The notes under the pieces were generated by a model. It was not told where the DNA came from, did not search any database, and saw only the letters and a program-made list of their open reading frames with translations. From IMG/VR virus record IMGVR_UViG_3300006141_000016: DNA of 57,386 nucleotides. One strand, given 5' to 3'. The stretch's first letter is position 1, and every line of letters starts with the position of its first letter. The DNA comes from a virus. Below are positions 1 to 57,386 of the stretch, piece after piece. Both the position numbers and the translations under genes were made by a program.

Positions 1-1833
1 ATACCATGGCTTACACAGCTTGTAAGTGCTATTTCTACAGCCATGACGTACGTGGCGCAGTTTATCGCCGTATTGAGTGGGAAAAGCACGTTCACAAAAG
101 CCAAAAAAGTGCAGGATGATTACAACAAATCTTTGGGCGGCACGGCGAAAGCGGCAGACAAGGCGAGGGGAGCCTTAGCCAAATTTGATGATCTGGATGT
201 GTTGGAAAAGAAAGAAGATACATCCGGCGGGGGAGCTGGAACGGAAGAGACCGGGGCAAACATGTTTGAAGAAGTTCCGGTTGACACTGAAGTATTGAGT
301 TTCTGGCAGCGGGTGCAGGAGGTTATGAAACCGGTTATTGAGTATGCCCGGCAGCTTAAAGATATTTTTTCTCAAGGCTTTTTTGATGGTCTGGGGGATT
401 GGGAATACCGTTGGGAATCCATCAAGTCAAGCATTTCGTCTGTAAAGGAAAGCTTAAAGAATATTTTCACAGACCCGGCAGTATTAGGGGCATCTAATAG
501 CTGGGCACAGTCAGTGGCATATACTCTTGGCTCTATTGCAGGCTCTATATCAAGCATTGGATTAACTATTGCCGAGAATCTGTTCGGAGGAATAGAAATA
601 TTCCTTGATGAAAATAAAGAACAGATTAAAGAAAATCTAATTTCCATGTTTGATGTCATAGAAGACATCAACTATTTGATAGCTTCTTTTGCTGAATCGT
701 TTGCTTACGTTTTTGAAGCATTTGGTGGTGAAAACGGGCAACAACTTACCGCAAATCTTATAGAGATATTTACAAATTCGTTTTTGGAATTAGGTGTAAT
801 AGTCGGAGAACTGGCCGGAGACATTCTAAACATCATCATAAAGCCATTTATAGATAACAAAGAAAAATTTCGCACTGCGTTGGATGGCTTTTTAGGTGTT
901 CTCTCAGAAGTGACAGAAACTATAAAGCAAGGCATAGAAGATACATTTGATAAATTCAATGAAATGTATGATGAGCATCTCAAGCCGTTTTTTAATTCCA
1001 TTGCGGAAGGTCTGTCAGATACTGCCGGAAAGTTTTTTGATTTCTGGAACGAGAACGTGCAGCCAATATTGGAGGAGTGGGCAGAAGGATTTGATGTTTT
1101 GTGGCAGGAACATATTCAGCCAATGTTAGATAAATTTATTGGGTTACTGGGAAAAGTAGGGGATTTCTTGTTAGCTGTTTGGGAAAACATCTTGAAGCCA
1201 CTTATTGACTGGATAATTGAAAATGTTCTTCCAGTTATTCTTCCGATTATAAAAGGAATCGGAGATGCAATCGGAACCTTATTTGGATTAATATCGGATG
1301 TTGTAGGAGGAATTTTTGATATATTTGGCGGACTTATTGATTTCGTAGTAGGTGTGTTCACGGGTGACTGGGAAAAGGCCTGGAATGGTATAGTTGATGT
1401 CTTCAAAGGAATATTTAATCTTATTCCAACTATCATAGAGGGAATACTAAATCTGGCAATAGATTTGATAAACGGGCTTGTAGACGGAATAAATGTTGTT
1501 ACCGGAGTTGTTGGGATACCTGAAATACCAGATATACCAAAAGTAAAACTCCCCCGCCTGGCCACCGGAGCCGTCATCCGCGGCGGAAATCCATTTATGG
1601 CAATCCTGGGCGACCAGCCGGCCGGAAAAACAAATATCGAGGCGCCGCTGGACACCATCAAGCAGGCCGTCCGGGAGGAACTGTCCGGAATTGACTTTGG
1701 AAGTGCCAGAAGCGGGCAGACAAAAGTGGTACTGAATATTAATGGTGTGGATGTGGGAGAAGCGGTGCTGGATGATCTGTTTTCGGTCATGTCCAGGCGT
1801 GGATATGATGTGAGTGTGCTGGGGGTGACGTGA
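1..1833 (+). CDS. Tape measure protein, C-terminal part; same ORF as 55990..57386, wrapping the circular junction (1-131 duplicates 57256-57386)
   Basis: Frame 1 is open from base 1 to TGA 1831-1833. Contains G/I/L-rich hydrophobic blocks (GIGDAIGTLFGLISDVVGGIFDIFGGLIDFVVGVF). Lies directly upstream of the tail genes. Confidence 0.85.
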   Translation: MPWLTQLVSAISTAMTYVAQFIAVLSGKSTFTKAKKVQDDYNKSLGGTAKAADKARGALAKFDDLDVLEKKEDTSGGGAGTEETGANMFEEVPVDTEVLSFWQRVQEVMKPVIEYARQLKDIFSQGFFDGLGDWEYRWESIKSSISSVKESLKNIFTDPAVLGASNSWAQSVAYTLGSIAGSISSIGLTIAENLFGGIEIFLDENKEQIKENLISMFDVIEDINYLIASFAESFAYVFEAFGGENGQQLTANLIEIFTNSFLELGVIVGELAGDILNIIIKPFIDNKEKFRTALDGFLGVLSEVTETIKQGIEDTFDKFNEMYDEHLKPFFNSIAEGLSDTAGKFFDFWNENVQPILEEWAEGFDVLWQEHIQPMLDKFIGLLGKVGDFLLAVWENILKPLIDWIIENVLPVILPIIKGIGDAIGTLFGLISDVVGGIFDIFGGLIDFVVGVFTGDWEKAWNGIVDVFKGIFNLIPTIIEGILNLAIDLINGLVDGINVVTGVVGIPEIPDIPKVKLPRLATGAVIRGGNPFMAILGDQPAGKTNIEAPLDTIKQAVREELSGIDFGSARSGQTKVVLNINGVDVGEAVLDDLFSVMSRRGYDVSVLGVT

Positions 1834-2225
1834 TGAAATTTCAAAAAGGAATAATAGTCGACGGGATATTTTTTGACATCCCCATGGTTTCACTGAAACG
1901 TTCTGCGGATTTCCTGGACAAGTATGCAGAGCGCACAGAAGATGGAGAACTGCAGAGGGAGCTGATCGGGGTGTATTACAATTACACCCTGACAGCCGGT
2001 ACGAGCAGCGATTTTGGCGATACGGATTATGATGCATTTTGGGACAAAATGACGGAGCCGGTGGAGTTCCATGACATATCCATCCCATTGAAAAACGGAT
2101 ACTACACATTCCGCGGTTACATATCCAGTGTATCAGACGAATACAAGAAAATCCTGGACAATGAAGCAGAGTTTACCGGCTTTACCTGTAAATTAACCGC
2201 TAAATCCCCAGCGAGGAGACCATGA
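1830..2225 (+). CDS. Small tail protein in the distal-tail (Dit) position
   Basis: ATGA overlap with the TMP stop; 131 aa. Synteny is TMP, this gene, then a large tail protein. No motif recognised. Confidence 0.5.
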   Translation: MMKFQKGIIVDGIFFDIPMVSLKRSADFLDKYAERTEDGELQRELIGVYYNYTLTAGTSSDFGDTDYDAFWDKMTEPVEFHDISIPLKNGYYTFRGYISSVSDEYKKILDNEAEFTGFTCKLTAKSPARRP

Positions 2226-3943
2226 GAACAGAATTTTTTGTTGATTACAACCTATATGACTTGACAGCATTGGACAATGCCCGAGAATCTTCAGCCAGCA
2301 ATGCCATGTTTGCAGATATCAGTCGGATAAAAGAAAACCTTCCAGCACCGGATTACGGTACCCTTGAACACAATTTCTTTGTGCTTGACGAGAGTCGGGA
2401 GGAGTTCCCGGACGTTCCGAAGGACCTTGTGTATTTTTCTTCCGGTCAGTCCGTGGCGGACGGAACCTTTCCTGCGGAGCAGTCGATCTCTATCCGCTTC
2501 ACGGAAAATCATACAAGTGTAGGGCTGACATTGACCTTTTTGGACACATATCCCATGGAGCTGGAAATATCCTGGTATGATCTTGGCGGGAACATGAAAT
2601 CGAAAAGAAAGTTTTTTCCTGATGCTCTTGTATATTTCTGTGAGCATCAGGTAGAAGATTACGGACAGATCAAGATCATATTTTTGAAAGCTCTTCCATG
2701 GCACAATGTAAAGCTGCAGTATATTAAATATGGTACAAGCATAACCTGGAACAGTGATACAATCAAAATAGGGAAATTAATTAATGAAGTGGATCCCATC
2801 AGCGACCGGATATCAACAGATACCCTTACATTTGAATTTATTGATAAACATGATGAATTCAACCTGGGGAATCAAAGCGGAATGCACAAGACATTTCAAC
2901 GGCGGCAAAACATGCTTGCCTATGAAAGAGTTGACAATGAGGTTATACCACTTGGAACTTTTTTTCTGGATAGTACTTCTATTACAAAGAATATCTGCAA
3001 AATGACGGCAATTGACTATAAAGGGATGCTGGCAAACACAGATTTTATAGACGGGAGAATGTATAACGGGGAAAAAGCAGGCGGAATCATAGCAGAAATT
3101 ATGGCGTCTGCTGGAATTACTGATTATGAAGTGGATGAAGTAACGGCAGACACGCCGTTATATGGCACGCTTAAAATCCAGACCTGCCAGAAAGCTCTCC
3201 GGGAAGTGCTGTTTGCGTGCGGAAGTATCATCAACACGTCACGACAGAAAGGAATATCCATTTACAGCAGTAAAAAAACAGTCAAGTCTGGTATTGGGAG
3301 AAGCAGAAAATTTGAGACGGCAATAGAGATGGAACGATATGTGTCGGATATAAATGTAAAATACCAGACATGGACGCTGGAAGAAAAGAGAAGTGAAATC
3401 ACAAAGGGGAGCTATCCGCCGGGGAGTCATATGATACAATTTGCAAGTCCGGCGGCCGAGTTGATGTCAAGCGCCGGGAAGATAATAAAGCAGATGCCAT
3501 ACTATGTGATATTGGAAATCCCGGCCCAGCAGCGGTCTGAAGTAGTTATTACTGGCCGAAAATACGTTGGAGAAGAACTGACAGTACTGTCCAGTATTGA
3601 GAAGATAAAAAGCGGGGAACTACGGAATTCAAAAACATTTTCTGGTGCGTTGCTTGATCTGGTGGCGGCGCAAAATGTGGCAAATAAGATTCTGGAATAC
3701 TATCAGTTGCAGCAGATTATAAAGACAAAGTACATTGCCTCAGAAGAAAAAGCTGGGGACATGGTGGAAATCGAAAACCCTTCCAGAAAGCATGGAAATT
3801 TCGCTGCATCCATTGAATCTGTGACAACGGACCTTGCAGGCGGATTTATAAGCACTGCAAAATGCAGGGGATATTATAAAATGCTTACAGATTACTATAT
3901 GGCGGGTGAAATCTATGCTGGAGAAGAGACCGGGATAATATAG
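2222..3943 (+). CDS. Tail-associated / baseplate hub protein (Tal position)
   Basis: 573-aa ORF with GAGGAG RBS, coupled to the upstream gene. Position after TMP/Dit. C-terminal GEIYAGE motif is shared with 5618..6163. Confidence 0.6.
   Translation: MRTEFFVDYNLYDLTALDNARESSASNAMFADISRIKENLPAPDYGTLEHNFFVLDESREEFPDVPKDLVYFSSGQSVADGTFPAEQSISIRFTENHTSVGLTLTFLDTYPMELEISWYDLGGNMKSKRKFFPDALVYFCEHQVEDYGQIKIIFLKALPWHNVKLQYIKYGTSITWNSDTIKIGKLINEVDPISDRISTDTLTFEFIDKHDEFNLGNQSGMHKTFQRRQNMLAYERVDNEVIPLGTFFLDSTSITKNICKMTAIDYKGMLANTDFIDGRMYNGEKAGGIIAEIMASAGITDYEVDEVTADTPLYGTLKIQTCQKALREVLFACGSIINTSRQKGISIYSSKKTVKSGIGRSRKFETAIEMERYVSDINVKYQTWTLEEKRSEITKGSYPPGSHMIQFASPAAELMSSAGKIIKQMPYYVILEIPAQQRSEVVITGRKYVGEELTVLSSIEKIKSGELRNSKTFSGALLDLVAAQNVANKILEYYQLQQIIKTKYIASEEKAGDMVEIENPSRKHGNFAASIESVTTDLAGGFISTAKCRGYYKMLTDYYMAGEIYAGEETGII
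2730..2763 (+). promoter_or_regulatory. Intragenic copy of the conserved promoter motif (ATGGTACAA-N19-TACAAT)
   Basis: Exact match to the bipartite motif, with the same 19-nt gap as the seven intergenic copies. Lies inside CDS 2222..3943. Confidence 0.4.
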
Positions 3944-7543: not shown

Positions 7544-7575
7544 AGCCGGGACACCTTGTGAGGGTGGTTCCGGCT
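7544..7575 (+). terminator. Hairpin after the tail/fibre block
   Basis: AGCCGG-ACACC...GGTG-TCCGGCT stem followed by the A/T-rich ATTATTAT. The U-tract is weak. Confidence 0.4.
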
Positions 7576-7581
7576 ATTATT

Positions 7582-7615
7582 ATGGTACAACAGCCTTTGC
7601 ATTTGGATGTAAAAT
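7582..7615 (+). promoter_or_regulatory. Conserved promoter motif copy (ATGGTACAA-N19-TAAAAT) upstream of the lysis cassette
   Basis: Bipartite motif with exact spacing. Intergenic, 29 nt upstream of the xhlA-like start. Confidence 0.6.
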
Positions 7616-7643
7616 TTAAATAAAAATCGAGGTGATAATTATT

Positions 7644-7961
7644 ATGGAAGTGGCTTATGTATCGAGGCAGGAGCACAATGAGTTTGCCCGCCGAATCGAC
7701 GAGGAAAACGCGCGCCAGAACCGCAGGCTACAGCTTTTGGAGGATAATGTCCGGCAAATCAACGCCCTCACTGTATCGGTAGAAAAAATGGCAGTCAACA
7801 TGGGCAATATGCTGGAGGAGCAGAAGAAGCAGGGAAAGCGCCTGGAGGCATTGGAAAAAGAACCCACGGAATCGTACAAACATATCAAAATGGCAATTAT
7901 CACATCGGTAATCAGCACAATCGTAGGTGCCTTAATTGGTGCAGTGGTGGTTCTTTTATAA
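7644..7961 (+). CDS. XhlA-like lysis-associated membrane protein
   Basis: GAGGTGA RBS. Coiled-coil followed by a single C-terminal TM segment (MAIITSVISTIVGALIGAVVVLL), as in PBSX XhlA. Sits before the holin and amidase. Confidence 0.7.
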   Translation: MEVAYVSRQEHNEFARRIDEENARQNRRLQLLEDNVRQINALTVSVEKMAVNMGNMLEEQKKQGKRLEALEKEPTESYKHIKMAIITSVISTIVGALIGAVVVLL

Positions 7962-7975
7962 GAAAGGAGAATAAA

Positions 7976-8191
7976 ATGAAAAACAGGAATTGGATGGAAT
8001 GGATGAAGAAGGCAGGAATCAGGGCAGTGAAAACAATGGCCCAGACAGCAGTGGCGATGCTCCCCGCAGCTGCTACCATTACGGCGGTAGATTGGAAGAC
8101 CGTGGCAGGGACAGCGGCACTTGCAGGCGTAGCCTCTTTGCTTACATCTCTTAAGGGACTGCCGGAGTTAGAAGACGGGGCGCAGGTGTAA
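7976..8191 (+). CDS. Holin (phi LC3 / Phage_holin_1-like)
   Basis: 71 aa. The pattern IRAVKTMAQTAVAML....VDWKTV...ALAGVASLLTSLKGLPE matches the LC3-family signature as recalled. Position between the XhlA-like gene and the amidase. Confidence 0.8.
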   Translation: MKNRNWMEWMKKAGIRAVKTMAQTAVAMLPAAATITAVDWKTVAGTAALAGVASLLTSLKGLPELEDGAQV

Positions 8192-12131: not shown

Positions 12132-12159
12132 TTGACATACGTAAAATCTTGTGTATAAT
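12132..12159 (+). promoter_or_regulatory. Sigma-A-type promoter toward the Cro-like gene (TTGACA-16-TATAAT)
   Basis: Perfect -35 and -10 hexamers are visible. Confidence 0.65.
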
Positions 12160-23171: not shown

Positions 23172-24293
23172 ATGAGTGAGCAATACAGAAGCAGGGTATA
23201 TACAGACAGGCCGGATTATGCGGATCTTGATCCTCCGGAAAAATTTCAGGCGATCATGGGCATTATAATGACGCATTTGAGGCAGCATCCCAAAACGATC
23301 TGTTCTTATTCCGGAGGGGCAGACAGTGATATCATGATTGACTTAATTGAGACCACACGAAAGATTGCGCCGTCTCTTCCGCCGGTAAAGTATGCTTTTT
23401 TTAACACAGGCCTGGAGATGAAAGCCACGAAAGACCATGTCAAAGAGACGGAGGAGAAATATGGCATAACGATTGAGCCATACCGTCCAAAGATTGGAAT
23501 CGTCCAGGCATCCAGGACTTACGGCATCCCCTTTGTATCAAAAATAATGTCTGCAGGGCTTGAAGGCTGGCAGAAAAAGAAGATACCTCTGTCAATAGCA
23601 GATGAATACGCGCAGGCTGAGGATAAGGCGGCAAAAAGGAGGGAGCTGAGCGAGAGATTTCCAAAGAGTGAGAGTATAATCAATTTCCTCTGCTGCTGCA
23701 ATTCCGCAGGGGAGCCGAGGCCGAACATCCAGCTGGTGATCAACTCGTCAAAATATATGCGTGATTTTATCGGAGAGTATCCGCCGGACTTCCAGATCAG
23801 CGCGCAGTGCTGTGACTACTGCAAGAAACAGGTGGCGCACAGTGCACAGAAGGGCTATGAAATGATTGTCACGGGAGAGCGGAGGGAGGAAGGCGGTATG
23901 AGGTCCGTCCCACGCAAGGACAATACGGCGCTGTGCTTTACTGAGACGACCGGAGGGCAGTATAGATTCAGGCCCCTTTACTATGTCACCGACAAGGATA
24001 AGGCCTGGTACAAGGAGCAGTTTGAAATAAGATATTCCGATGCTTACGAGGTCTACGGCCTTACCAGGACGGGCTGCTGTGGGTGCCCGATCTCATACAA
24101 GGCAGTTGAGGATCTGGAGCTGATCCGGCCATACGAACCGAATGTTGTGAAGGCAGCATGGAACATCTTTGGGAAGAGCTATGAGTACCGCAAGAAATAT
24201 AATGCCTATAAGGATGCCAGGATGGCAGAAGAGAAGAAAAAGAAATCAAATGTAGATGGGCAGATGGAGATGTTTGATTTTATGCAGGGATAA
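23172..24293 (+). CDS. PAPS-reductase-family PP-loop protein (DndC-like fold candidate)
   Basis: PP-loop SYSGGADSD. C-terminal Cys clusters CCDYCKK and TGCCGCPISY. Confidence 0.7.
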   Translation: MSEQYRSRVYTDRPDYADLDPPEKFQAIMGIIMTHLRQHPKTICSYSGGADSDIMIDLIETTRKIAPSLPPVKYAFFNTGLEMKATKDHVKETEEKYGITIEPYRPKIGIVQASRTYGIPFVSKIMSAGLEGWQKKKIPLSIADEYAQAEDKAAKRRELSERFPKSESIINFLCCCNSAGEPRPNIQLVINSSKYMRDFIGEYPPDFQISAQCCDYCKKQVAHSAQKGYEMIVTGERREEGGMRSVPRKDNTALCFTETTGGQYRFRPLYYVTDKDKAWYKEQFEIRYSDAYEVYGLTRTGCCGCPISYKAVEDLELIRPYEPNVVKAAWNIFGKSYEYRKKYNAYKDARMAEEKKKKSNVDGQMEMFDFMQG

Positions 24294-27600: not shown

Positions 27601-27670
27601 AATGTCCTCCTTTGTGAGATTTAGTTAGTTTACGATAATACAGTACCGCAGTATGCGGAGAAAGGAAAAT

Positions 27671-28057
27671 ATGGAGAGATTGACAAAAGCTGAATTGGTA
27701 AATGGATTTCCGGTATGCTATCCGAATAATTGTTCTGGATTGCCGGAATTTGTGACAAAGGGGAATCCATACAGGAATATAGTGGAAAGGCTAAAAGCGT
27801 ATGAAGACCTTGAGGAACAAGGGAAACTGCTGAAACTGCCTTGCGCGGTAGGTGATACGGTTTATGCCTTGGATAGATTTTGTTCGGGTTCTTCCTTAGA
27901 TTGTCCGAGTAGACCATGCGAATCTTGCGAAGATTATCAACTTGAAATTTACGAGGGAGAATTCAAGCTAAATGATATAAATGATTTCGGCAAAACCGTT
28001 TTCCTCACCAGAGAAGAAGCCGAGGAAGCGCTGAAAAGGATGGAGGATGAGAAATGA
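27671..28057 (+). CDS. Hypothetical
   Basis: AAAGGAAAA RBS. 128 aa. LKLPCAVGDTVY motif of unknown family. Confidence 0.6.
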   Translation: MERLTKAELVNGFPVCYPNNCSGLPEFVTKGNPYRNIVERLKAYEDLEEQGKLLKLPCAVGDTVYALDRFCSGSSLDCPSRPCESCEDYQLEIYEGEFKLNDINDFGKTVFLTREEAEEALKRMEDEK

Positions 28058-28476
28058 GAAAACTTAAACCCTTACTCCGGAAGCATTGGAATTGTATTCT
28101 ATGGTTTGTTGTAGGAATACTTGTCATGGTATATGGAGAAGTATCAACATTGCAGTATTTTTTATGTTGGTCAGTGCTGATAACATATCTTTGGAGAAAA
28201 CCAGTTAAAGAAGGGGACATTGTGATAGAGAAGAATGAAGAAAGTTTGAGGACGGGAAATGAGACTGAGTGCGAGAAGCCAAAAGCGATCCTGGTGATGG
28301 AGATGCCGAAGAACTGTGACGACTGCTATTTGTGCGTGGAGTATGGAGGGTGCTACAAATGCGCTGCTACAGGTGATGTGATGGCAAGGCCCCATGAGAT
28401 AAGGCCGGCCTGGTGTCCGATCCGGGAGCTGCCAGAACGGCCAGGCGTTGGATTGGGAGTAAAACCTAATTTCTGA
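28054..28476 (+). CDS. Membrane-anchored Cys-rich protein
   Basis: N-terminal TM segments. C-terminal CDDCYLC...CYKC...RPAWCPIRELPE. Confidence 0.6.
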   Translation: MRKLKPLLRKHWNCILWFVVGILVMVYGEVSTLQYFLCWSVLITYLWRKPVKEGDIVIEKNEESLRTGNETECEKPKAILVMEMPKNCDDCYLCVEYGGCYKCAATGDVMARPHEIRPAWCPIRELPERPGVGLGVKPNF

Positions 28477-28482
28477 TAGGAG

Positions 28483-28947
28483 GTGATGATATTGCGCAGA
28501 AAATGCCATAACTGCCTGTGCCGGACATGTTTAACGGTATGCGGAAAGTGTGTGGAATGCAAAGAAAAAATTACATACTGCGAGAATTACAATGGGTTTG
28601 AGCAGATAAGCATTTTCTGTGCACCGCAGGAGCCGCGGCACCATAGAACACCACGGCACTCGATAGAGTATTACGGACTGACAGATGAGCGGGTTGCGGA
28701 ATTAGAAAAGCTGATACAGTCCGGCAGATATGCCTCTCTCGCTTCGCAGGCGGCTCATACAGCTAATGAAATGATAGCAGAGTATATCTTGCTTAGCATT
28801 ACTCAAAACAAGTCCTATGACGCTCTCAGGGTGAAATGGGAGCTAAAAGAAATGGAGCAGATACCGTACTGCCGGACGGATTTTTATGGGATTAGGAGAT
28901 ATTTCATGGCGATTTTTGACAAGGAAATGAGGAGGATAGGGAAATGA
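28483..28947 (+). CDS. Candidate late-gene transcriptional activator (RinA/ArpU-like position)
   Basis: Cys-rich N-terminus. C-terminal segment ILLSITQNKSYDAL...CRTDFYGIRRYFMAIFDKE resembles RinA/ArpU-type ends. Lies just upstream of the late promoter and terS. Confidence 0.4.
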   Translation: MMILRRKCHNCLCRTCLTVCGKCVECKEKITYCENYNGFEQISIFCAPQEPRHHRTPRHSIEYYGLTDERVAELEKLIQSGRYASLASQAAHTANEMIAEYILLSITQNKSYDALRVKWELKEMEQIPYCRTDFYGIRRYFMAIFDKEMRRIGK

Positions 28948-29111
28948 TTAGATGTAACAGTCCGTTTGCGTGCTATAACAGATGTGTAATTGATATGGAT
29001 GCACAACAGTCGCAAGGTGGAACTATCTGCTGTGATATGGCGGAAGAGATGGATTTTGACAGGAGCCGCATACTGCAACGATGTGAACATGCGGAGAACG
29101 TGGAAGAATAA
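28944..29111 (+). CDS. Small Cys-rich protein (55 aa)
   Basis: ATGA coupling with a GGAGGA RBS. Confidence 0.45.
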   Translation: MIRCNSPFACYNRCVIDMDAQQSQGGTICCDMAEEMDFDRSRILQRCEHAENVEE

Positions 29112-29112
29112 T

Positions 29113-29146
29113 TTGGTACAACTTCCCCTCAAATCTCCTATACAAT
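29113..29146 (+). promoter_or_regulatory. Conserved promoter motif copy (TTGGTACAA-N19-TACAAT) ahead of the terminase block
   Basis: Bipartite motif with exact spacing; intergenic. Confidence 0.6.
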
Positions 29147-29221
29147 ATTATTAGGGGATTTAGGGGGTGTGGAGTGAAATATGAAGTATTGGAGAATTGA
29201 AAATACATAATTGACAAGGGA

Positions 29222-29589: not shown

Positions 29590-30102
29590 GTGGCTGCCAG
29601 GCTGACAGATAAACAGAAAAAAGAAATAATTGCTGATTATGTGGAGTCTGGCAGCTATAGAGCAACGGCAAAGAAGTTTGGAGTGTCAGATAACACTGTA
29701 AAAAAGATTTGCAATGAAAATGCGCAAATTGCGCAGATGTGCGAAGAGAAAAAAGAACAGAACACTGCTGACATTTTGGATTATATGGAATCCAGAAAAG
29801 AGAAAGCGAAAGATGTTTTAGATGCTTACATAGAAGCCTTGAAAAAGCCAGAAAAAATACAGGCTGCGAAGCTGTCAGAGATTGCTACTGCAATGGGGAT
29901 TGTGATAGATAAATTTATCAACAATCCAATGAAACATCAGTTAGATAAGCAGAAGCTTGAAATCGAACTCCTGAAGCTGGAAAGCCAGGTCAAGGACAGC
30001 CAGCCGGAGGAAGAAGCAGAGGACAACTTCATGGACGCTCTGAACGGAACGGCGGCGGAAGTGTGGGAAGAAAGTGAGGTAGAGGAAGATGACAGAGAAT
30101 GA
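29590..30102 (+). CDS. terS: Terminase small subunit
   Basis: GTG start after GAGGTGAG. N-terminal HTH (SYRATAKKFGVSDNTVKKI), an acidic tail, and a position before terL. Confidence 0.75.
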   Translation: MAARLTDKQKKEIIADYVESGSYRATAKKFGVSDNTVKKICNENAQIAQMCEEKKEQNTADILDYMESRKEKAKDVLDAYIEALKKPEKIQAAKLSEIATAMGIVIDKFINNPMKHQLDKQKLEIELLKLESQVKDSQPEEEAEDNFMDALNGTAAEVWEESEVEEDDRE

Positions 30103-30412
30103 AGCGATTTCAAGAATGAGATATAGAGTAGACACCGCAACGCATATTATCGGAAAAGGCGTTGACGGAAAAGCTTATGAAGATATGGAAATGGCAATTA
30201 AAGCCCTTGAAGAAATCCAACAGTACCGAGCAATCGGCGCAGTCGAGGAATGCCGGGAGGCAAGGGAAAAGCAAATCCAAAAGAAACCTATCCATGGCGG
30301 GCTATATGCTTGCCCCAACTGCCACACAATTATGTTGCAAGGCGCTTTTGAAGCAAGGGGGAGATGTTGCAAGGAATGTGGGCAGGCATTGGATTGGAGT
30401 GAAACGGTTTGA
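30089..30412 (+). CDS. Zinc-ribbon protein inserted between terS and terL
   Basis: CPNC....CCKEC; 107 aa. Confidence 0.55.
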   Translation: MTENEAISRMRYRVDTATHIIGKGVDGKAYEDMEMAIKALEEIQQYRAIGAVEECREAREKQIQKKPIHGGLYACPNCHTIMLQGAFEARGRCCKECGQALDWSETV

Positions 30413-34805: not shown

Positions 34806-35243
34806 ATGAGAATCAACAAAACAAATGGGAATGTTGACATAAAACTGGATACAAAGCGCATTGACCGCAATATGAAAGAAGCGCAGAAGCTGTTGAACCT
34901 GGCTGTCCGGACTGACTGTGAGCCGTTGGTTCCGTTACTGAATGGGCAGCTTCGCCGGAGCGCCAATTTCCCGGAGGGAGTATATGGGGGAGTGCTGGAA
35001 TACAATACGCCATATGCGCATGCGATTTACGAGGGATTCGTATTTACTCCAAACATACCGATTAAGGACAGCGAGGGAAATATTACTGGTTGGTTTTCGC
35101 CGCCAGGACAAAAGAAACAGAAGACCAACAGAAAAATGCATTTCCACGAACCTGGCACAACAGACCACTTTTTTGAAGAAGCGAAGCGTTTACATGGCGT
35201 TGAATGGATACGGCTTGTAAAAGAAACTGCCGGAAAAGATTAA
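34806..35243 (+). CDS. Minor capsid protein candidate
   Basis: 145 aa. NTPYAHAIYEGF motif as in minor-capsid / head-completion families. Position in the head module. Confidence 0.5.
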   Translation: MRINKTNGNVDIKLDTKRIDRNMKEAQKLLNLAVRTDCEPLVPLLNGQLRRSANFPEGVYGGVLEYNTPYAHAIYEGFVFTPNIPIKDSEGNITGWFSPPGQKKQKTNRKMHFHEPGTTDHFFEEAKRLHGVEWIRLVKETAGKD

Positions 35244-35244
35244 C

Positions 35245-35278
35245 TTGGTACAAATCCCTATGCAATCTATTTTATAAT
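35245..35278 (+). promoter_or_regulatory. Conserved promoter motif copy (TTGGTACAA-N19-TATAAT)
   Basis: Starts 2 nt after the upstream stop codon. Exact spacing. Confidence 0.65.
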
Positions 35279-38591: not shown

Positions 38592-38621
38592 AGCCGCCAG
38601 CTAAATACTGGCGGCTTTTTT
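38592..38621 (+). terminator. Intrinsic terminator
   Basis: AGCCGCCAG-ctaaata-CTGGCGGCT followed by TTTTTT. Confidence 0.85.
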
Positions 38622-38628
38622 GATTAAG

Positions 38629-38662
38629 TTGGTACAACCTCCGTCCAAATCTGTTGTAAAAT
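38629..38662 (+). promoter_or_regulatory. Conserved promoter motif copy (TTGGTACAA-N19-TAAAAT)
   Basis: Immediately after the terminator. Exact spacing. Confidence 0.65.
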
Positions 38663-39114: not shown

Positions 39115-39138
39115 GTGATTGAAAAACCTATCTCAAGT

Positions 39139-39147
39139 TGGTATAAT
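39139..39147 (+). promoter_or_regulatory. Extended -10 promoter element TGGTATAAT
   Basis: TGnTATAAT, 31 nt upstream of ATG 39178. Confidence 0.45.
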
Positions 39148-39177
39148 ATGGGAAAATACATACCGGAGGGGAAAACC

Positions 39178-39501
39178 ATGGGAAACGAAGAAAAGAAAGA
39201 TGAAGTATTGAACATTGCAAACGAATTGCTTCAAGAAATGAAGATTCAGGCGGAAAGATCGCATAAAGCGCTGATAACTGTTGCATGGCTTTGGTTTGCG
39301 TCTGTAATAGCTATTGTGGCCGGATTCCTGATTTACCTGTACCAGTATGATTTTACGGCAACAGTGGAGCAGACCGGGGTATACACTCTTATGGACAGTC
39401 AGGGAAATGTCATATCGTCAGATCTGACGCCTGAGGACATAATCAAGATAGAGGAGATTTTGGAAAGTGGCAAAGACCAAGGTGACCAAGAGCAGAAGTA
39501 A
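39178..39501 (+). CDS. Single-pass membrane protein (107 aa)
   Basis: GGAGGGG RBS. TM segment LITVAWLWFASVIAIVAGFLIYLY. Confidence 0.6.
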   Translation: MGNEEKKDEVLNIANELLQEMKIQAERSHKALITVAWLWFASVIAIVAGFLIYLYQYDFTATVEQTGVYTLMDSQGNVISSDLTPEDIIKIEEILESGKDQGDQEQK

Positions 39502-39547
39502 GAAGAGCGGCAAGAAGAGAGGAACGGCGAAAAGGAAGAAGTAAGGA

Positions 39548-39757
39548 ATGGCACGAAACATTATCCCGGATTTCAGCAGAGAGAAAAGAGAATATTTCAG
39601 GAGAGAATGCAATTTCACTCCAAGAGAAGAACAACTTTTTGATTTGAGGAACCAGGAATATTCTTTGGAGGAATGCGCCGAACTTATGCACTGCAGTGAA
39701 TCCACCATAGGACGAATCAGTAAAAAGATGCTTCGGAAGATAATGGAGCAAATTTGA
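39548..39757 (+). CDS. Small sigma-70 region-4-like / LuxR-type HTH regulator
   Basis: FTPREEQLFDLRNQEYSLEECAELMHCSESTIGRISKKMLRKI. Confidence 0.6.
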   Translation: MARNIIPDFSREKREYFRRECNFTPREEQLFDLRNQEYSLEECAELMHCSESTIGRISKKMLRKIMEQI

Positions 39758-39787
39758 CGGTTTTATGAGAGACTTTTGAAAAGATTT

Positions 39788-39820
39788 AGAGGCTTATCTG
39801 ACATGGTAAGTCTCTTTTTT
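39788..39820 (+). terminator. Intrinsic terminator
   Basis: AGAGGCTTA...TAAGTCTCT 9-bp stem followed by TTTTTT. Confidence 0.75.
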
Positions 39821-41576: not shown

Positions 41577-41610
41577 ATGGTACAACTGATTTATTCCCTC
41601 ATGGTAAAAT
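41577..41610 (+). promoter_or_regulatory. Conserved promoter motif copy (ATGGTACAA-N19-TAAAAT)
   Basis: Exact spacing. Followed 6 nt later by leader copy 2. Confidence 0.65.
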
Positions 41611-41705: not shown

Positions 41706-42617
41706 ATGGGAATGACAAATAATATGTTGTCGCTTGTGCGGTATGTGGCAGAAAATGACCTATCAAAAGCCAAACAGTATGCGCTTAGCTGTTGTGTGGA
41801 AGATACCACACAGAAAAACAAGTATTATGTATCAAGGTATAAGCAGTTGCTCACTACTGGCGGCTTAAATATGATTGAATTGCCGCCTAACGTGTCAAAA
41901 TTTGCCACAATGGAAGATGTATCTATGACATACATAGAAAATAGGTATTATCTGACGGAGGACGAAAAGAAACTGTTTGAACTGATACGAGATATGAACG
42001 ATGTTGCCTTACAGCTTATGGAAAAACAGATACCATATCTGAATGCTACTTTGTTATACGGAGAAAGCGGAGTTGGAAAGACAGCATTTTCAAAATATGT
42101 CGCATACAAACTTGAAATGCCTTATCTGTATGTGAACTTTTCCAAAATGTTAGACAGCTTACTTGGAGGAACCGCAAAGAATTTGACTGCATTGTTTAAT
42201 TATATCAATCAGCAAAAATGCGTAATAATGCTTGATGAAATTGACTGTATGGCAGGAAATAGAAAGTATTCTGATGGTGGAGCGTCGGCAGAAGTATCAA
42301 GAAGTACAACATGCCTATTACAGCTTTTAGACGCAGTTACAAACGACCATGTAATACTAGCGGCAACAAATCTGATTGATGATGTTGACCCGGCTGTAAA
42401 AAGAAGATTTACAGAAAAACATGAAATGCACCGTCTGACCACTGATGAAAATTATGCTTTCATCTGTCAATACATGAATAGCACTGGTTTTAAATATAGC
42501 CTTCTATCTGCAATGGAATATGCGAGGCAGGAACATTCACAAGCGGAAATTATGACACATATGACAAGGTGCATTGCACAAACGCTTATAAACAAAAAGT
42601 CCATAGTTGAATTTTAA
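41706..42617 (+). CDS. Classical AAA+ ATPase (FtsH/Cdc48-clade AAA domain)
   Basis: Walker A GESGVGKT, Walker B IMLDEID, sensor LAATN, RRF. Confidence 0.85.
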   Translation: MGMTNNMLSLVRYVAENDLSKAKQYALSCCVEDTTQKNKYYVSRYKQLLTTGGLNMIELPPNVSKFATMEDVSMTYIENRYYLTEDEKKLFELIRDMNDVALQLMEKQIPYLNATLLYGESGVGKTAFSKYVAYKLEMPYLYVNFSKMLDSLLGGTAKNLTALFNYINQQKCVIMLDEIDCMAGNRKYSDGGASAEVSRSTTCLLQLLDAVTNDHVILAATNLIDDVDPAVKRRFTEKHEMHRLTTDENYAFICQYMNSTGFKYSLLSAMEYARQEHSQAEIMTHMTRCIAQTLINKKSIVEF

Positions 42618-44261: not shown

Positions 44262-44486
44262 TCAATCAATAGCTACTTCGATGTAATGTTTCCAGGTTCC
44301 ATCTGATTGCTTGCCAAAAGACCCAAACCTTTTTAAGGTGCGTTCTCCAAAAATACTTTTTATGAGCTCAGATCCACTCATATTATGACTGGAAATGAAT
44401 TGCCCATTGGACGCTGTTTCCCTAACCTCAAAAATATCAGGCGAGTCCCAACCAGACCAAATTTTTAAAACATCTTTTGCCTTCAT
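44262..44486 (-). CDS. Small protein (74 aa), minus-strand operon
   Basis: ORF in the track. AAGAAAGAAGGGATGAT upstream. Confidence 0.55.
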   Translation of the reverse strand: MKAKDVLKIWSGWDSPDIFEVRETASNGQFISSHNMSGSELIKSIFGERTLKRFGSFGKQSDGTWKHYIEVAID

Positions 44487-44518
44487 ATCATCCCTTCTTT
44501 CTTACAGCATAACCTAGG

Positions 44519-44755
44519 TCATTTTTCTATCAATTCAAGATTATAAAGCATATTCTCTAAAGATACATATGCGACCATCATGTCACATTTAATATCTGCA
44601 AAATCTTCATCCGAGATTTCCGAAACGATGTCTTCATGCTTCGATAATTGTTTTTCATACCATTCATCAATTTCGGCTTCCAACTTTGCGGATTTTTCTA
44701 CTAAGGCGTTGTGCCTTTCAATCTTTTTAGAGATATAGTTTGGTATTTTCGGCAT
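44519..44755 (-). CDS. Small acidic protein (78 aa), minus-strand operon
   Basis: GGAGGAAGA RBS. Confidence 0.6.
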   Translation of the reverse strand: MPKIPNYISKKIERHNALVEKSAKLEAEIDEWYEKQLSKHEDIVSEISDEDFADIKCDMMVAYVSLENMLYNLELIEK

Positions 44756-44802
44756 TCTTCCTCCATTTCCCCCGGCGCAACCCCGCCGGGTGGGTGGTGT
44801 GG

Positions 44803-44961
44803 TTATTTTTTAACCATGTGTTTACTTACTTCGTAAATAATAGATAAAATTTCAAAATTTATGCTTTCGAGTTTTTCTTTTGTAAAAATGAAATCATTTG
44901 TTCTGGTTTGGTGTTTTAGTATTTCTTCAATCATATCTTTTTTCGTGAGTTCTTTTGTCAT
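44803..44961 (-). CDS. Small protein (52 aa), first gene of the minus-strand operon
   Basis: GGAGGATATGGAAA RBS before ATG 44961. Confidence 0.5.
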   Translation of the reverse strand: MTKELTKKDMIEEILKHQTRTNDFIFTKEKLESINFEILSIIYEVSKHMVKK

Positions 44962-44993
44962 TTTCCATATCCTCCGTTCCTTTGATAAGACTA

Positions 44994-45022
44994 ATTATAC
45001 ACACTATAATGTGTAATTTCAA
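44994..45022 (-). promoter_or_regulatory. Strong sigma-A-type promoter TTGAAA-17-TATAAT for the small-gene operon
   Basis: Read on the minus strand. Overlapped by an operator-like inverted repeat. Confidence 0.6.
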
Positions 45023-45118: not shown

Positions 45119-45337
45119 GTGATAATTTACAAGGATATTCTGCAAAAACTCAAAGACGCAGGATACAACACGAACCGCATAAGGAAAGAGGGATTGCTGT
45201 CAGAAGGTACTTTGCAGAGATTGAGAGAGGGCAGGCCAATCACAACAGAAACGATAGATATTATATGTAACCTGACAGGGTGCAAGGTCGAGGAAATAAT
45301 AGAGCATAAAATCTCCCACGACAATGGGCGGCAGTGA
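45119..45337 (+). CDS. XRE/Cro-type HTH regulator divergent from the small-gene operon
   Basis: GTG start after GGGAGGTGG. LLSEGTLQRLREGRPITTETIDIICNLTGCKVEEII. Confidence 0.7.
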   Translation: MIIYKDILQKLKDAGYNTNRIRKEGLLSEGTLQRLREGRPITTETIDIICNLTGCKVEEIIEHKISHDNGRQ

Positions 45338-45358
45338 TGCCGCTCTTTTGCGTATAAC

Positions 45359-45392
45359 TTGGTACAAATAAATTCTGGAAGCATGTTATCAT
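45359..45392 (+). promoter_or_regulatory. Conserved promoter motif copy (TTGGTACAA-N19-TATCAT)
   Basis: Exact spacing. Points into the ORF-poor region. Confidence 0.55.
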
Positions 45393-45581: not shown

Positions 45582-45672
45582 GGCAAGATAGCCCTGACTC
45601 CGAACGTGGAGCAATCAGGTATGTTGGGTTCAGCATTTGAACAAAACGCAGGTTCAATTCCTGCTCTTGCCA
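45582..45672 (+). ncRNA. 91-nt tRNA-like element with a non-canonical core
   Basis: Perfect 7-bp acceptor stem GGCAAGA/TCTTGCC and a canonical T-arm GCAGG-TTCAATT-CCTGC. I could not fold standard D or anticodon arms. Confidence 0.4.
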
Positions 45673-46864: not shown

Positions 46865-46934
46865 TTTCTGCATAAACAGTGCAGAACATTTCCCTTTCCA
46901 AGCGCCTGCCCATTGCGGGCGGGCGCACCCTCCT

Positions 46935-47007
46935 CGGATTTTAGCGCAGTTGGCAGAGCACCTGTCTTATATACAGGCGGTCGGTGGTTCGATTCCACCA
47001 ATTCCGA
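46935..47007 (+). tRNA. trnI(UAU): tRNA-Ile, anticodon UAU
   Basis: Manual cloverleaf: 7-bp acceptor stem (one mismatch), D-arm GCGC/GAGC with a GG loop, anticodon stem CCTGT/ACAGG with loop CTTATAT, T-arm GGTGG-TTCGATT-CCACC. Confidence 0.7.
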
Positions 47008-47152
47008 TTACCCCGGCAAAGGTTTATTTGCCTACTCCCTTGCGTGGGCGGCACGCTATAAAAACGCTATGGAGGAAAACTTGGCAAAGTATAAATGCTT
47101 ACTCTCATATGCGGACAGCGCATTATAAAAAATGTTATGGAGGACATGAAGC

Positions 47153-55654: not shown

Positions 55655-55822
55655 ATGCCAAAAACAAAAAATGGTGGCTTTATATTGGACGACAGTTCTT
55701 GTGATCCTTACGGCGTGGCGAAAATGCGCGAGAAGATGAACGGGGCAAAGAAGAGCAAGACGAATAATGCAGCAAAGAAAAGAGGAACTGGAAAAAGAAA
55801 TGATTTTATGAAAGGGCAGTAG
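55655..55822 (+). CDS. Small basic protein (55 aa)
   Basis: AAGGAGATAA RBS. Confidence 0.45.
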   Translation: MPKTKNGGFILDDSSCDPYGVAKMREKMNGAKKSKTNNAAKKRGTGKRNDFMKGQ

Positions 55823-55838
55823 GAATACTGCTCTTTTA
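55814..55838 (+). terminator. Intrinsic terminator
   Basis: GGGCAGTA-ggaa-TACTGCTC followed by TTTT. Confidence 0.6.
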
Positions 55839-55840
55839 AT

Positions 55841-55874
55841 TTGGTACAAATTCATTCTCAAATAATGATACAAT
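55841..55874 (+). promoter_or_regulatory. Conserved promoter motif copy (TTGGTACAA-N19-TACAAT) ahead of the TMP
   Basis: Exact spacing. Begins 3 nt after the terminator. Confidence 0.65.
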
Positions 55875-55895
55875 AATCATAACTAAATCAAAGCA

Positions 55896-55975
55896 CCCTA
55901 TGAATTGGCATAGGGGAAGGACTAAACGGTGTCATGGATGCGTGTAATGCGCGTCTGTGGCACTTTTTTATTTTT
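55896..55975 (+). terminator. TMP leader: hairpin plus a long intrinsic terminator (attenuator candidate)
   Basis: CCCTATG/CATAGGG hairpin (55896..55915), then a 15-bp stem at 55929..55963 (five G-U pairs) followed by TTTTTTATTTTT, ending 14 nt before the TMP start. Confidence 0.6.
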
Positions 55976-55989
55976 AAGGTGGTGAGATC

Positions 55990-57386
55990 GTGGCAGAGTA
56001 TGATGGAAGTATAAGGATAGGAACGGGAATAGATATACAAGGTTTTGACGATGATGGGAAGAAACTGGAAGCAAAAGCCAGAAGGCTTGCAGAAAACATT
56101 TCCGGAAATTCCGATGTAGAAATAAAGGTAGATTCTACCACTGCAAAAAAAGAATTAAAAGAAGCTTTTGATGACATTGAAAAAGAAGAAAAGAGGATTG
56201 AGGAACTTGCTAAGAGGGCAGTTGAGAGGGCAAGAGGGAGTCAGACGGCGACTTACGTGCCAGAAGAGCCTAGGTATGGTGCGCCTATTTCAACACCCGG
56301 ATATAATCAAGACGCAATTAAAGCTATCGAGGAACAAACTGAAAAAGTAGATAAAATAGATGAACACTGGAACCAGCTCAGAATAGATGTCGAAGAGTAC
56401 GCAAGATCCTTGAAGGAGCTTCAGGGCCAGGGGAAATTTTTTGGCGATGAAGATTATGACCAGCTTTATCTTTATTGGAAAAATGCCACAGATGCCGTAA
56501 AAGCCTATCAGGCAGAGCTGAACAAACAGACAGACTCCGGCCAGACGAAGATCGCCGAACAGGAAGCGAAAGCGACAGAGAAAAGAGAAGCGGCCCAGCG
56601 CCGGGCAGAGGAGCAGGCAGAAAGGGCCTTGCAAAGAGAAAACGAGCGTATCCAGAGGCAGGCCGAAAACGAGGCAAAGCTTGCTGCAAAAGAGGCGGAA
56701 CGCCAGACGAAAATTCAGGCTGAAGCGGAAGAAGAACAGCGTCTTGACCAGATAAGGGTGAATGCCACAGTATCCAATCAGGAGATCGTTGATCTGCTGG
56801 AACGCCGCAGACAGCTAATATCAGAAATCAAAGATATGGAAGCGGCAGGTGTCGGACTGGGCTACCAGCAGTATGAGGACGCAAACCGGGAGCTGGAAGA
56901 GGTAAACGGTAAGATTAAAGAGTACCGGAAGAACCTTGGAAGTGTACCTGAGAAGTTTAATAAAATGCGGAAATCTGCAAACAAAGCTTTTACTGCAGTA
57001 GCGCAGGGAACAAAGAAAAGCAGCGCACTGTTGTCTAATTTCACAAGCAGATTAAAAGGCATCGCCCTTTCTCTCTTGATTTTTAACTGGATATCCAAGG
57101 GTTTTAACGCCATGATATCCGGCATGAAAAAAGGCTTTGAGAACTTTGCCGGATACTCTGATTCCTATGCACAGAATATCCAGAATATGAAGAATGCCAT
57201 GTCGACGCTGGGGAATCAGTTTGCCGCGGCATTTGCCCCTATCGTCCAGATGGTTATACCATGGCTTACACAGCTTGTAAGTGCTATTTCTACAGCCATG
57301 ACGTACGTGGCGCAGTTTATCGCCGTATTGAGTGGGAAAAGCACGTTCACAAAAGCCAAAAAAGTGCAGGATGATTACAACAAATC
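55990..57386 (+). CDS. Tape measure protein, N-terminal part (continues at base 1)
   Basis: GTG start after AAGGTGGTGA. Open to the window end in the same frame as base 1. Coiled-coil Glu/Lys/Gln-rich region. Total about 1032 aa once the overlap is removed. Confidence 0.85.
   Translation, partial: MAEYDGSIRIGTGIDIQGFDDDGKKLEAKARRLAENISGNSDVEIKVDSTTAKKELKEAFDDIEKEEKRIEELAKRAVERARGSQTATYVPEEPRYGAPISTPGYNQDAIKAIEEQTEKVDKIDEHWNQLRIDVEEYARSLKELQGQGKFFGDEDYDQLYLYWKNATDAVKAYQAELNKQTDSGQTKIAEQEAKATEKREAAQRRAEEQAERALQRENERIQRQAENEAKLAAKEAERQTKIQAEAEEEQRLDQIRVNATVSNQEIVDLLERRRQLISEIKDMEAAGVGLGYQQYEDANRELEEVNGKIKEYRKNLGSVPEKFNKMRKSANKAFTAVAQGTKKSSALLSNFTSRLKGIALSLLIFNWISKGFNAMISGMKKGFENFAGYSDSYAQNIQNMKNAMSTLGNQFAAAFAPIVQMVIPWLTQLVSAISTAMTYVAQFIAVLSGKSTFTKAKKVQDDYNK
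57256..57386 (+). repeat. 131-bp terminal overlap identical to 1..131
   Basis: Base-for-base identity read directly from the sequence. Confidence 0.98.

Follow-up and report, generated by a model that had tools for sequence, protein, structure and literature searches.

Putative late promoters sharing one upstream box in a temperate Lachnospiraceae phage, and a small protein family that may read it

What might explain why one bipartite motif, WTGGTACAA followed at an unvarying distance by a -10-like hexamer, occurs eight times on a single strand of a phage genome? The genome is IMG/VR virus record IMGVR_UViG_3300006141_000016, a stretch of 57,386 nucleotides (nt) that in its whole length is called the window here. 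An initial annotation, based on the letters and open reading frames (ORFs) of the window, had taken the motif for a phage-specific promoter class and had named two possible readers, a "RinA/ArpU-like" gene at 28483..28947 and a sigma region-4-like gene at 39548..39757. The explanation that we favor, and consider probable, is that the sites are phage late promoters whose upstream box would be read by a phage-encoded factor, most likely the product of 28483..28947, with the host sigma factor acting at the -10 hexamer.

A bipartite motif confined to the late region

All eight copies of WTGGTACAA are on the + strand, starting at 2730, 7582, 29113, 35245, 38629, 41577, 45359, and 55841, against a mean of 0.87 copies in dinucleotide shuffles, none of 100 of which reached eight. 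The distance from the box to the hexamer is exactly 19 nt in 8/8 sites, and the hexamers are TACAAT and TAAAAT (three each) and TATAAT and TATCAT (one each); a recount agreed with the initial annotation, which had given exactly 22 nt between (T/A)TGGTA and the hexamer in each + strand copy. The looser pattern TGGTA-N22-TANNAT has 10 matches where 0.34 are expected, including the eight sites with their identical spacing. A ninth TGGTACAA, at 24006, lies within a coding region and has no -10. When both strands were scanned with a scoring matrix made solely from sites of other phages, with the spacer positions zeroed, the eight sites scored 22.7-33.9 bits and the next best window position on either strand 10.8 bits, a gap wide enough to conclude that there are exactly eight sites.

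Alignment of the sites shows that the box reaches further upstream, to TAAnTTGGTACAA; a weak AATCT element stands at about -21 to -17, some 5 bases ahead of the hexamer. The hexamer itself is close to TATAAT: among 67 unique sites T1, A2, A5, and T6 are present in 100% and A4 in 86%, and position 3 is free. The upstream element, as had been claimed, is about 5 nt farther away than a -35 of the housekeeping sigma factor (sigma-A), the distance to the -10 being 22 nt for TTGGTA and 20 nt for GGTACA. No TTGACA-like hexamer is found 16-18 nt before the -10 at the eight sites, and a consensus sigma-A promoter scan, in the regions that it covered, calls none of them. The two promoters that had been described as canonical TTGACA/TATAAT types, at 12132 and ~44994, are of that type (TTGACA-16-TATAAT at 12132, the other near 44982-45022), and the early region has canonical promoters only. 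With such promoters at 12132 and ~45000, the host housekeeping type is evidently standard in this phage, and the eight sites are unlike it. A literature search for the box returned, among the papers listed, primer-type matches only.

How are the sites placed in the genome? The window has a G+C content of 45%, comes from a temperate phage, and appears to be the complete, circularly permuted genome of a siphovirus-like phage of Lachnospiraceae. At 8.2-12.1 kb its minus strand carries an integrase and a repressor-type gene; genes for replication, recombination, and methylases occupy 14.9-27.2 kb, and terminase, portal, head, tail, and lysis genes extend from 29.6 kb on. The tape-measure gene starts near 55990 (GTG) and is continued at 43..1833 across the window junction, from which it follows that the assembly is circular and was cut within this gene. 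All eight sites are in the late part, from 29.1 kb over the junction to 7.6 kb, on the coding strand. Seven of the eight are intergenic, as had been reported, and the sole intragenic copy, at 2730, is within a real gene (2222..3943, a full-length phrog_13879 match). The sites are co-oriented with the genes and stand after terminators and before ribosome-binding sites or leaders. The initial annotation had three copies starting within 10 nt of a terminator; terminator-like hairpins precede 38629, 45359, and 55841, ending 8-14 nt ahead of them. Several late blocks end in terminators, and each would therefore be restarted by a promoter copy of its own. Each of two int-alpA RNAs, downstream of the sites at 35245 and 41577, begins exactly 6 nt past the hexamer, where a transcription start would be expected, and this supports the promoter reading.

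Related phages were examined as two sets, a family-based set of 51 loci (792 kb) that encode a homolog of the 28483..28947 product, in which up to one box mismatch was allowed, and a terL-based set of 80 loci (991 kb) picked by large-terminase similarity alone. The two sets together (131 loci, 1.78 Mb) have 157 matches on the strand of the late genes versus one on the opposite strand, so that the motif is clearly enriched in homologous phages, the check by which the initial annotation had proposed that its promoter class could fail. The family-based set has 69 matches on the homolog's strand versus one opposite, and 67 downstream versus two upstream of the homolog, with further copies 4-10 kb downstream of the first; the terL-based set has 88 on the late strand versus none opposite. 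Loci with homologs are in Lachnospiraceae genomes, many from mouse gut, and in viral contigs. One of them (L001), in the cultured Lachnospiraceae bacterium JLR.KK009 (CP143549.1), is a prophage with an 82%-identical protein and with the motif. A large terL-selected group, apparently from other sample series, has GGGTACAA-N19-TACAAT with quite different spacers, which defines GGTACAA plus the hexamer at a fixed distance as the invariant core, and human-gut relatives likewise keep GGTACAA-N19-TACAAT despite very different spacers. In many related Lachnospiraceae phages the sites are conserved at both orthologous and non-orthologous positions. A blind scan of viral contigs with 14 specified bases, used as the background set, gave 119 loci, mostly with single chance matches.

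This comparative evidence supports well a class of late promoters, and the eight sites are very probably such promoters; we infer promoter activity and its late timing, and their confinement to the late region, their single strand, and their conservation in relatives bear out the earlier proposal of a phage-specific class. Two other promoter types were considered and rejected, a sigma-54 promoter because the GG-to-GC spacing is unfit, and a promoter of a single-subunit phage RNA polymerase because no ORF for such a polymerase is present and the spacer is variable.

The candidate reader and its rivals

The candidate reader is a 154-amino acid (aa) ORF at 28483..28947 (+ strand), after which the early operon has no further sizeable gene. 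Its homologs are ~151 aa long, and its start is therefore probably at 28486-28492. After it come a 55-aa ORF, the promoter at 29113, terS at 29590, and terL at 30409, an order that is the same in most relatives. A large protein collection holds 596 homologs, none with a name or a Pfam domain, and an exhaustive search puts the family at 183 clusters at 50% identity. In the AlphaFold model residues 55-151 are well predicted (pLDDT 87-96) and form a five-helix C-terminal domain, the family core of ~100 aa; the Cys-rich N-terminus is modeled poorly and is missing from many family members. The best-conserved segment is TDFYGxRR, with F131 invariant and Y132 and R136 at 90% or more, a conservation that parallels that of the unvarying box. 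Small Cys-rich ORFs of 134, 140, 154, and 55 aa (27653-29111) end the early operon; many relatives have homologs of the 134-aa ORF on the 3' side of the first late promoter, which means that these small genes shuffle across the early/late boundary.

What ties this family to the box is their joint occurrence. Of the loci selected by terminase that extend 3 kb or more upstream, 35 have both the family gene and the motif, 11 the family gene only, two the motif only, and nine neither (Fisher p=6e-4), and both of the motif-only loci are contigs ending just upstream of the motif. The first motif copy, orthologous to the promoter at 29113, is 150-1540 nt 3' of the family gene in most loci. Three loci found through the motif only encode distant family members of 80-105 aa, 350-1250 nt upstream on the same strand. 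A divergent subfamily (TKADFYAYQRKA) has a different box at the same place, ATGTGTCACCAC-N19/20-TAAAAT; in each of L189 and L206-L208 the pattern GTCACCAC-N19/20-TAAAAT is found at a single position. This variant box is suggestive, a hint that protein and box co-vary. A Pfam search of the 20 larger early and late ORFs, which did not extend to the small ORFs at 12.3-14.9 kb, revealed no sigma factor or other known transcription regulator. That the reader is phage-encoded, as the initial annotation had concluded, is still the best inference, and the association with the motif makes 28483..28947 the best candidate.

How would such a promoter work? Host RNA polymerase carrying the housekeeping sigma factor would recognize the TAnAAT -10 at a site that offers it no usable -35. 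The invariant box, (TAAn)TTGGTACAA, centered near -36 and 19 nt from the -10, would be bound by the phage factor, which would recruit or re-target the polymerase. This factor is most likely the product of 28483..28947, whose gene closes the early operon directly 5' of the first late promoter. A core of ~100 aa is too small for a complete sigma factor, and together with the housekeeping-type -10 this favors a protein that acts as an activator or takes the place of -35 recognition.

The label "RinA/ArpU-like" is a different matter. Pfam and NCBIfam searches with the window protein and 102 diverse family members gave no match to any model, RinA (TIGR01636), ArpU (TIGR01637), Sigma70_r4, and DUF1492 included, and profile searches of the PDB with the family returned nothing meaningful. 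An hhalign comparison of the family with an alignment of 14 Listeria ArpU sequences, based on gp66 of phage A118, gave a probability of 0.1-0.6%; so shallow an alignment could miss a very remote homology to ArpU. Foldseek found no match in the PDB (best E=3.5) and only uncharacterized family members in BFVD. With no match in models, structures, or profiles the label is unsupported, although the candidate has the gene position of RinA and ArpU. Homology to ArpU was rejected, the profile-profile comparison being negative beyond a shared "IPY" tripeptide.

Several observations weigh against the candidate as reader. Sequence and structure searches detect neither a DNA-binding fold nor a known homolog, and the model has a long loop between its last two helices, unlike a canonical helix-turn-helix. 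Eleven family-positive loci lack the motif; in one group, L190-L202, the C-terminal segment (ARKDFQGYRRKV) is near-identical to that of motif-bearing phages and there is no motif in 15 kb. L016, L024, and L168 are also family-positive and motif-free. A search for an alternative motif in the family-positive, motif-negative groups found none for L190-L202, L024, L025, or L168. The loci are phylogenetically related, so that the co-occurrence counts overstate their independence, and the variant box comes from two independent phages with one site each. The box is invariant across proteins that are 33-45% identical, which would also fit a conserved host reader, and the whole of the evidence is sequence-based.

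Could the reader then belong to the host? The eight sites would still be late promoters, the box being recognized by a host alternative sigma factor or by an activator active after induction, and the 151-aa protein would have some other role. A GGTACAA core that stays unchanged while the family proteins diverge to ~33-45% identity, the family-bearing phages without the motif, and a 151-aa protein without a recognizable DNA-binding domain would all suit such an arrangement. However, the -10 is of the housekeeping type, and 415 kb upstream of the family gene, comprising early phage regions and host flanks, contain two matches, versus 67 downstream. The terL relatives that lack the family gene (L253-L256) lack the motif too, and we know of no Firmicute regulator whose site matches the box. 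A host reader is, in our judgment, unlikely. In L253, which is free of both family and motif, the annotation upstream of terS shows no known regulator.

A second alternative keeps the 151-aa protein and makes it a minimal, highly divergent sigma-like factor that would take the place of sigma-A and recognize the -10 as well as the box. A spacing fixed at 19 nt is what one would typically see where one polypeptide does the recognizing, and SYDxL...IPxGRTDFYGYRRxF loosely resembles sigma region 4.2. Yet the core members, at 80-105 aa, are too small to contain regions 2 and 4, no family member matches a sigma model, and the -10 is the standard sigma-A hexamer. We regard this alternative as very improbable, and a new sigma factor as less likely than an activator or a -35 substitute.

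Less probable again is the other reader that had been named, the sigma region-4-like protein of 69 aa encoded at 39548..39757 (+ strand), which would act like the LtrA (Sigma70_r4) late regulators. Sigma region 4 domains read -35-type elements, and the protein has sub-threshold matches to Sigma70_r4 and, at C-terminal model positions, to extracytoplasmic function (ECF) sigma factors, matches to phrog sigma-factor families, and homologs in several relatives. Against it stands the distribution of those homologs, which share a locus with the motif in two cases, are present in 18 loci that are motif-free, are undetected in 37 that bear the motif, and are absent together with the motif from four (terL relatives in which the region is covered). 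Its gene also does not adjoin terS; it is downstream of the promoter at 38629, in a cassette with its own near-consensus sigma-A promoter (TTGAAA-17-TATAAT with TG, 39119-39147), a membrane-protein ORF, and a terminator (39788-39815). This distribution disfavors the protein as reader. The whole cassette (39119-39815) looks like a self-contained, moron-like insertion in the late region. In L020, TGTCAC occurs three times beside a sigma-region-4-like ORF, resembling a classical Ltr target.

Least probable of all is that the motif is no promoter but a module-boundary or recombination sequence, or a packaging or replication protein-binding site between gene blocks: the sites do lie at module junctions, and one promoter-leader cassette precedes different genes in different phages, but the sigma-A -10 at fixed spacing, the co-orientation with genes (157 versus 1), the positions right after terminators, the structured leader RNAs that begin 6 nt past the hexamer, and the conservation of one site within a gene (2730) all speak against it.

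We return, then, to a phage-encoded reader. That the 151-aa family protein reads the box is, from the comparative evidence, somewhat the likelier case. A wider proposal is more tentative: the family could represent unrecognized late-transcription factors that replace -35 recognition at GGTACAA-N19-TAnAAT, with the first promoter nested in a hairpin, and the int-alpA and gut-2 RNAs would thereby gain a start site and a timing.

Two further observations touch the family gene. At L025:9750 and 6713, and in the same way in L167, TGGTACAA-N19-GATAAT stands directly 5' of the family gene, and a tape-measure-like gene comes after the latter; such a layout suggests either autoregulation or a differently organized, possibly defective, element. 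Repeats containing ACACGATAA, in arrays of three or four spaced ~60-100 nt apart, follow the family gene at L024:10888-11072 and L021:4400-4620, and ACACGATAA is also found upstream of terL at L189:2290, in a possible terS. These repeats may be a packaging site.

Individual putative promoters, their leaders, and neighboring elements

Putative late promoter 1 (29113..29146, + strand, as are all of the features in this section unless stated otherwise; TTGGTACAA-N19-TACAAT) is the first in the late region, at the early-to-late junction, 2 nt past the stop of the ORF 28944..29111, and heads small ORFs, terS, terL, and portal. An inverted repeat (29122..29167) brackets its -10, with one arm in the spacer (29122-29139, CTTCCCCTCAAATCTCCT) and the other in the leader (29153-29167, AGGGGATTTAGGGGG). 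The same layout, in unrelated sequences, is kept in other phages in at least five versions (L212:3938, L209:6022, L249:5875, L207:4359, L189:1806). The arms are ACAAAATCCTCACACA and TGTGTGAGGATTTTGT in L212, where the right arm holds the ribosome-binding site (Shine-Dalgarno), AAAAAAGATTTTACA and TGTGGAATCTTTTTT, then more T, in L209, and GCTAATTATTAACC and GGGTTGTGATTAGC, then a T-run, in L249; L207 and L189 are two mutually compensated versions. Of 35 spacer clusters, 10 pair with the leader far better than shuffled spacers, with z below -2. In L209 and L249 the 3' arm thus has a terminator-like U-run at its end; in the window, it shows neither a clear Shine-Dalgarno sequence nor a clear terminal U-run.

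A plausible role for the hairpin is to sort read-through from promoter-initiated transcripts. RNA reading through from the early operon would fold the spacer-leader hairpin, with the -10 in its loop, and would then be terminated or left untranslated, whereas RNA initiated at promoter 1 would lack the 5' arm and could form no hairpin. The close orthologs keep the inverted repeat but also tell against this: RNAalifold on 22 promoter 1 orthologs found compensatory change in 0/13 predicted pairs, and L001, L015, L017, and L018 keep the left arm and have lost the right one. Since close orthologs have no compensatory changes, support for the hairpin comes from the unrelated sequence versions only.

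Putative promoters 2 and 4 have the int-alpA leaders. Promoter 2 (35245..35278; TTGGTACAA-N19-TATAAT), 1 nt past the stop of 34806..35243, heads an int-alpA RNA (RF02996; 35284..35350; 45.9 bits versus a gathering score of 35.8) that forms the 5' leader of an HNH endonuclease gene, followed by a MuF-like minor head protein; orthologs with the RNA are found in L009, L010, and L012. Promoter 4 (41577..41610; ATGGTACAA-N19-TAAAAT) heads a second int-alpA RNA (RF02996; 41616..41682; 41.4 bits versus 35.8), which forms the 5' leader of the gene for the AAA+ ATPase (41706..42617).

Intrinsic-terminator-like hairpins are directly 5' of promoters 3 and 5. Promoter 3 (38629..38662; TTGGTACAA-N19-TAAAAT) is 13 nt past the terminator stem at 38592..38616, and its orthologs are ~8-9.8 kb 3' of the family gene in L005, L007, L008, L013, L014, and L161. 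Promoter 5 (45359..45392; TTGGTACAA-N19-TATCAT) is 14 nt past the stem at 45326..45345, at the head of a block that reaches to 55822 and consists of a small ORF, a tRNA-like element, tRNA-Ile, and genes of the head and tail; it has orthologs at L133:1431 and L129:2949. The tRNA-like element (45582-45672) scores 34 bits, has large D-arm and anticodon-arm insertions, and is not called by ARAGORN, and the tRNA-Ile (TAT; 46934-47008) is normal. A second foreign cassette, besides that of the sigma region-4-like gene, lies on the minus strand (44262-44961), with divergent housekeeping promoters near 45000.

Promoter 6 (55841..55874; TTGGTACAA-N19-TACAAT) is 8 nt past a hairpin (55814-55833, plus TTTT) and has a positional ortholog at L104:9972. 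It had been said to head the tape-measure gene. The promoter is indeed upstream of that gene, but a structured leader with a terminator-like hairpin intervenes (55892..55964; z-score -3.6), in which a gut-2-like RNA (RF02990; 55892-55939), at 38 bits just under the gathering score of 39.8, overlaps a 17-pair hairpin with a U-run (55928-55964), and the tape-measure ribosome-binding site and GTG (55990) follow. This leader hairpin could represent either an attenuator or a small RNA. A hairpin and T-run right before the tape-measure start are also present in L104 and L025. In the tape-measure gene of the window the reading frame shifts near the junction, one segment ending at ~57408 (~22 nt past the junction) and another beginning at 57375, which could be due to two genes, a programmed frameshift, or an artifact of assembly or circularization.

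Promoter 7 (2730..2763; ATGGTACAA-N19-TACAAT) is the copy within the tail gene 2222..3943. Compared with L171, positions 2723-2763 differ at 1 of 41 nt and the whole gene at 401 of 1707 (binomial P=2e-4), so that the site is constrained well beyond the rest of its gene. The site has an ortholog at L104:13898; the motif is not present there in L173, a 62%-identical ortholog. A 73-codon ORF (2784-3005) in another frame of the tail gene has an RBS-like AGGGAAA and starts 21 nt past the -10 of this promoter. In L171, at 23% nucleotide divergence, this frame is likewise open and has the same stop, and in the promoter-less L173 it is closed; it may be an overlapping gene. Promoter 8 (7582..7615; ATGGTACAA-N19-TAAAAT), 6 nt past a hairpin without a T-run (7544-7575), heads a putative lysis cassette of an XhlA/hemolysin-like gene (7632..7961) and a small ORF (7976..8191).

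Significance and relation to known systems

Why should this promoter class matter? Almost nothing is known about gene regulation in phages of the Lachnospiraceae, which are among the most abundant gut bacteria. If the wider proposal is true, a new class of -35-substituting factor would be at work throughout a broad clade of Lachnospiraceae phages from the mouse and human gut. A specific late-promoter signature would allow late regions, transcription units, and prophage activity to be annotated directly from metagenomes, and would place the orphan RNA motifs int-alpA and gut-2 in a transcriptional context. A candidate regulator without known relatives is a defined target for biochemistry, and a phage-controlled pair of promoter and activator could serve genetic tools in Clostridia-like gut bacteria. 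The promoter within a hairpin would be a reusable design for isolating late from early transcription.

How does the arrangement compare with systems already described? In the T4 middle promoters a MotA box of ~9 bp replaces the -35 next to a sigma-70 -10, in many copies, and sigma is appropriated by MotA and AsiA. The window shares with them a bipartite promoter made of a standard -10 and a phage-specific box. The MotA box, however, is centered at -30, 11-13 bp from the -10, compared with about -36 and 19 bp in the window, and T4 needs two proteins; no MotA or AsiA homologs were noted among the proteins scanned. T4 also offers a parallel for the hairpin: in genes e, soc, and I-TevI the late promoter is within an inverted repeat, so that read-through early transcripts fold and late ones cannot. 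The layout at promoter 1 of the window, and in the five or more unrelated versions, is alike.

The Ltr superfamily (RinA, ArpU, LtrA/Sigma70_r4, LtrB/DUF1492, and LtrC) comprises late activators of Gram-positive phages (PMC3753634, PMC3152322). The candidate gene resembles them in standing at the end of the early/replication region, directly 5' of the terS late promoter, in encoding a protein in the range of 100-150 aa, and in belonging to a temperate siphovirus of a Firmicute host. Ltr proteins, however, bind three 7-nt direct repeats 5' of a terS promoter from which the one late operon is transcribed (PMC3753634). The window instead has one box per promoter, at a fixed 19 nt, and eight promoters, and the candidate family matches no Ltr model.

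The late promoters of phage Mu (Plys, PI, PP, and Pmom) are several, scattered over the late region, have a -10 without a -35, and share a site for C that overlaps or abuts the -35 position; C itself is a small phage protein that is made earlier and switches them on (PMC2582627, PMC4461284). In the window, too, the several putative late promoters have in common a -10, the lack of a -35, and the same upstream site. The P2/P4 late promoters, with Ogr/Delta, are of the same kind as those of Mu, and the likeness extends to P2 Ogr. Mu and P2 differ in having Gram-negative hosts and in the form of their sites, a dyad at about -30 to -55 for C and TGT-N12-ACA near -55 for Ogr, unlike the asymmetric box of 8-13 nt in the window, with its center near -36. 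The Pfam and NCBIfam searches with the family showed no similarity to Mor/C or Ogr. The closest kind is thus that of activator-dependent late promoters that have a -10 without a -35 and are repeated within a genome. The window differs from all of the known systems in the sequence of the box, in its center near -36 and its unvarying 19 nt to the -10, in the number of such promoters for a temperate phage of a Gram-positive host, and in a candidate regulator without detectable relatives.

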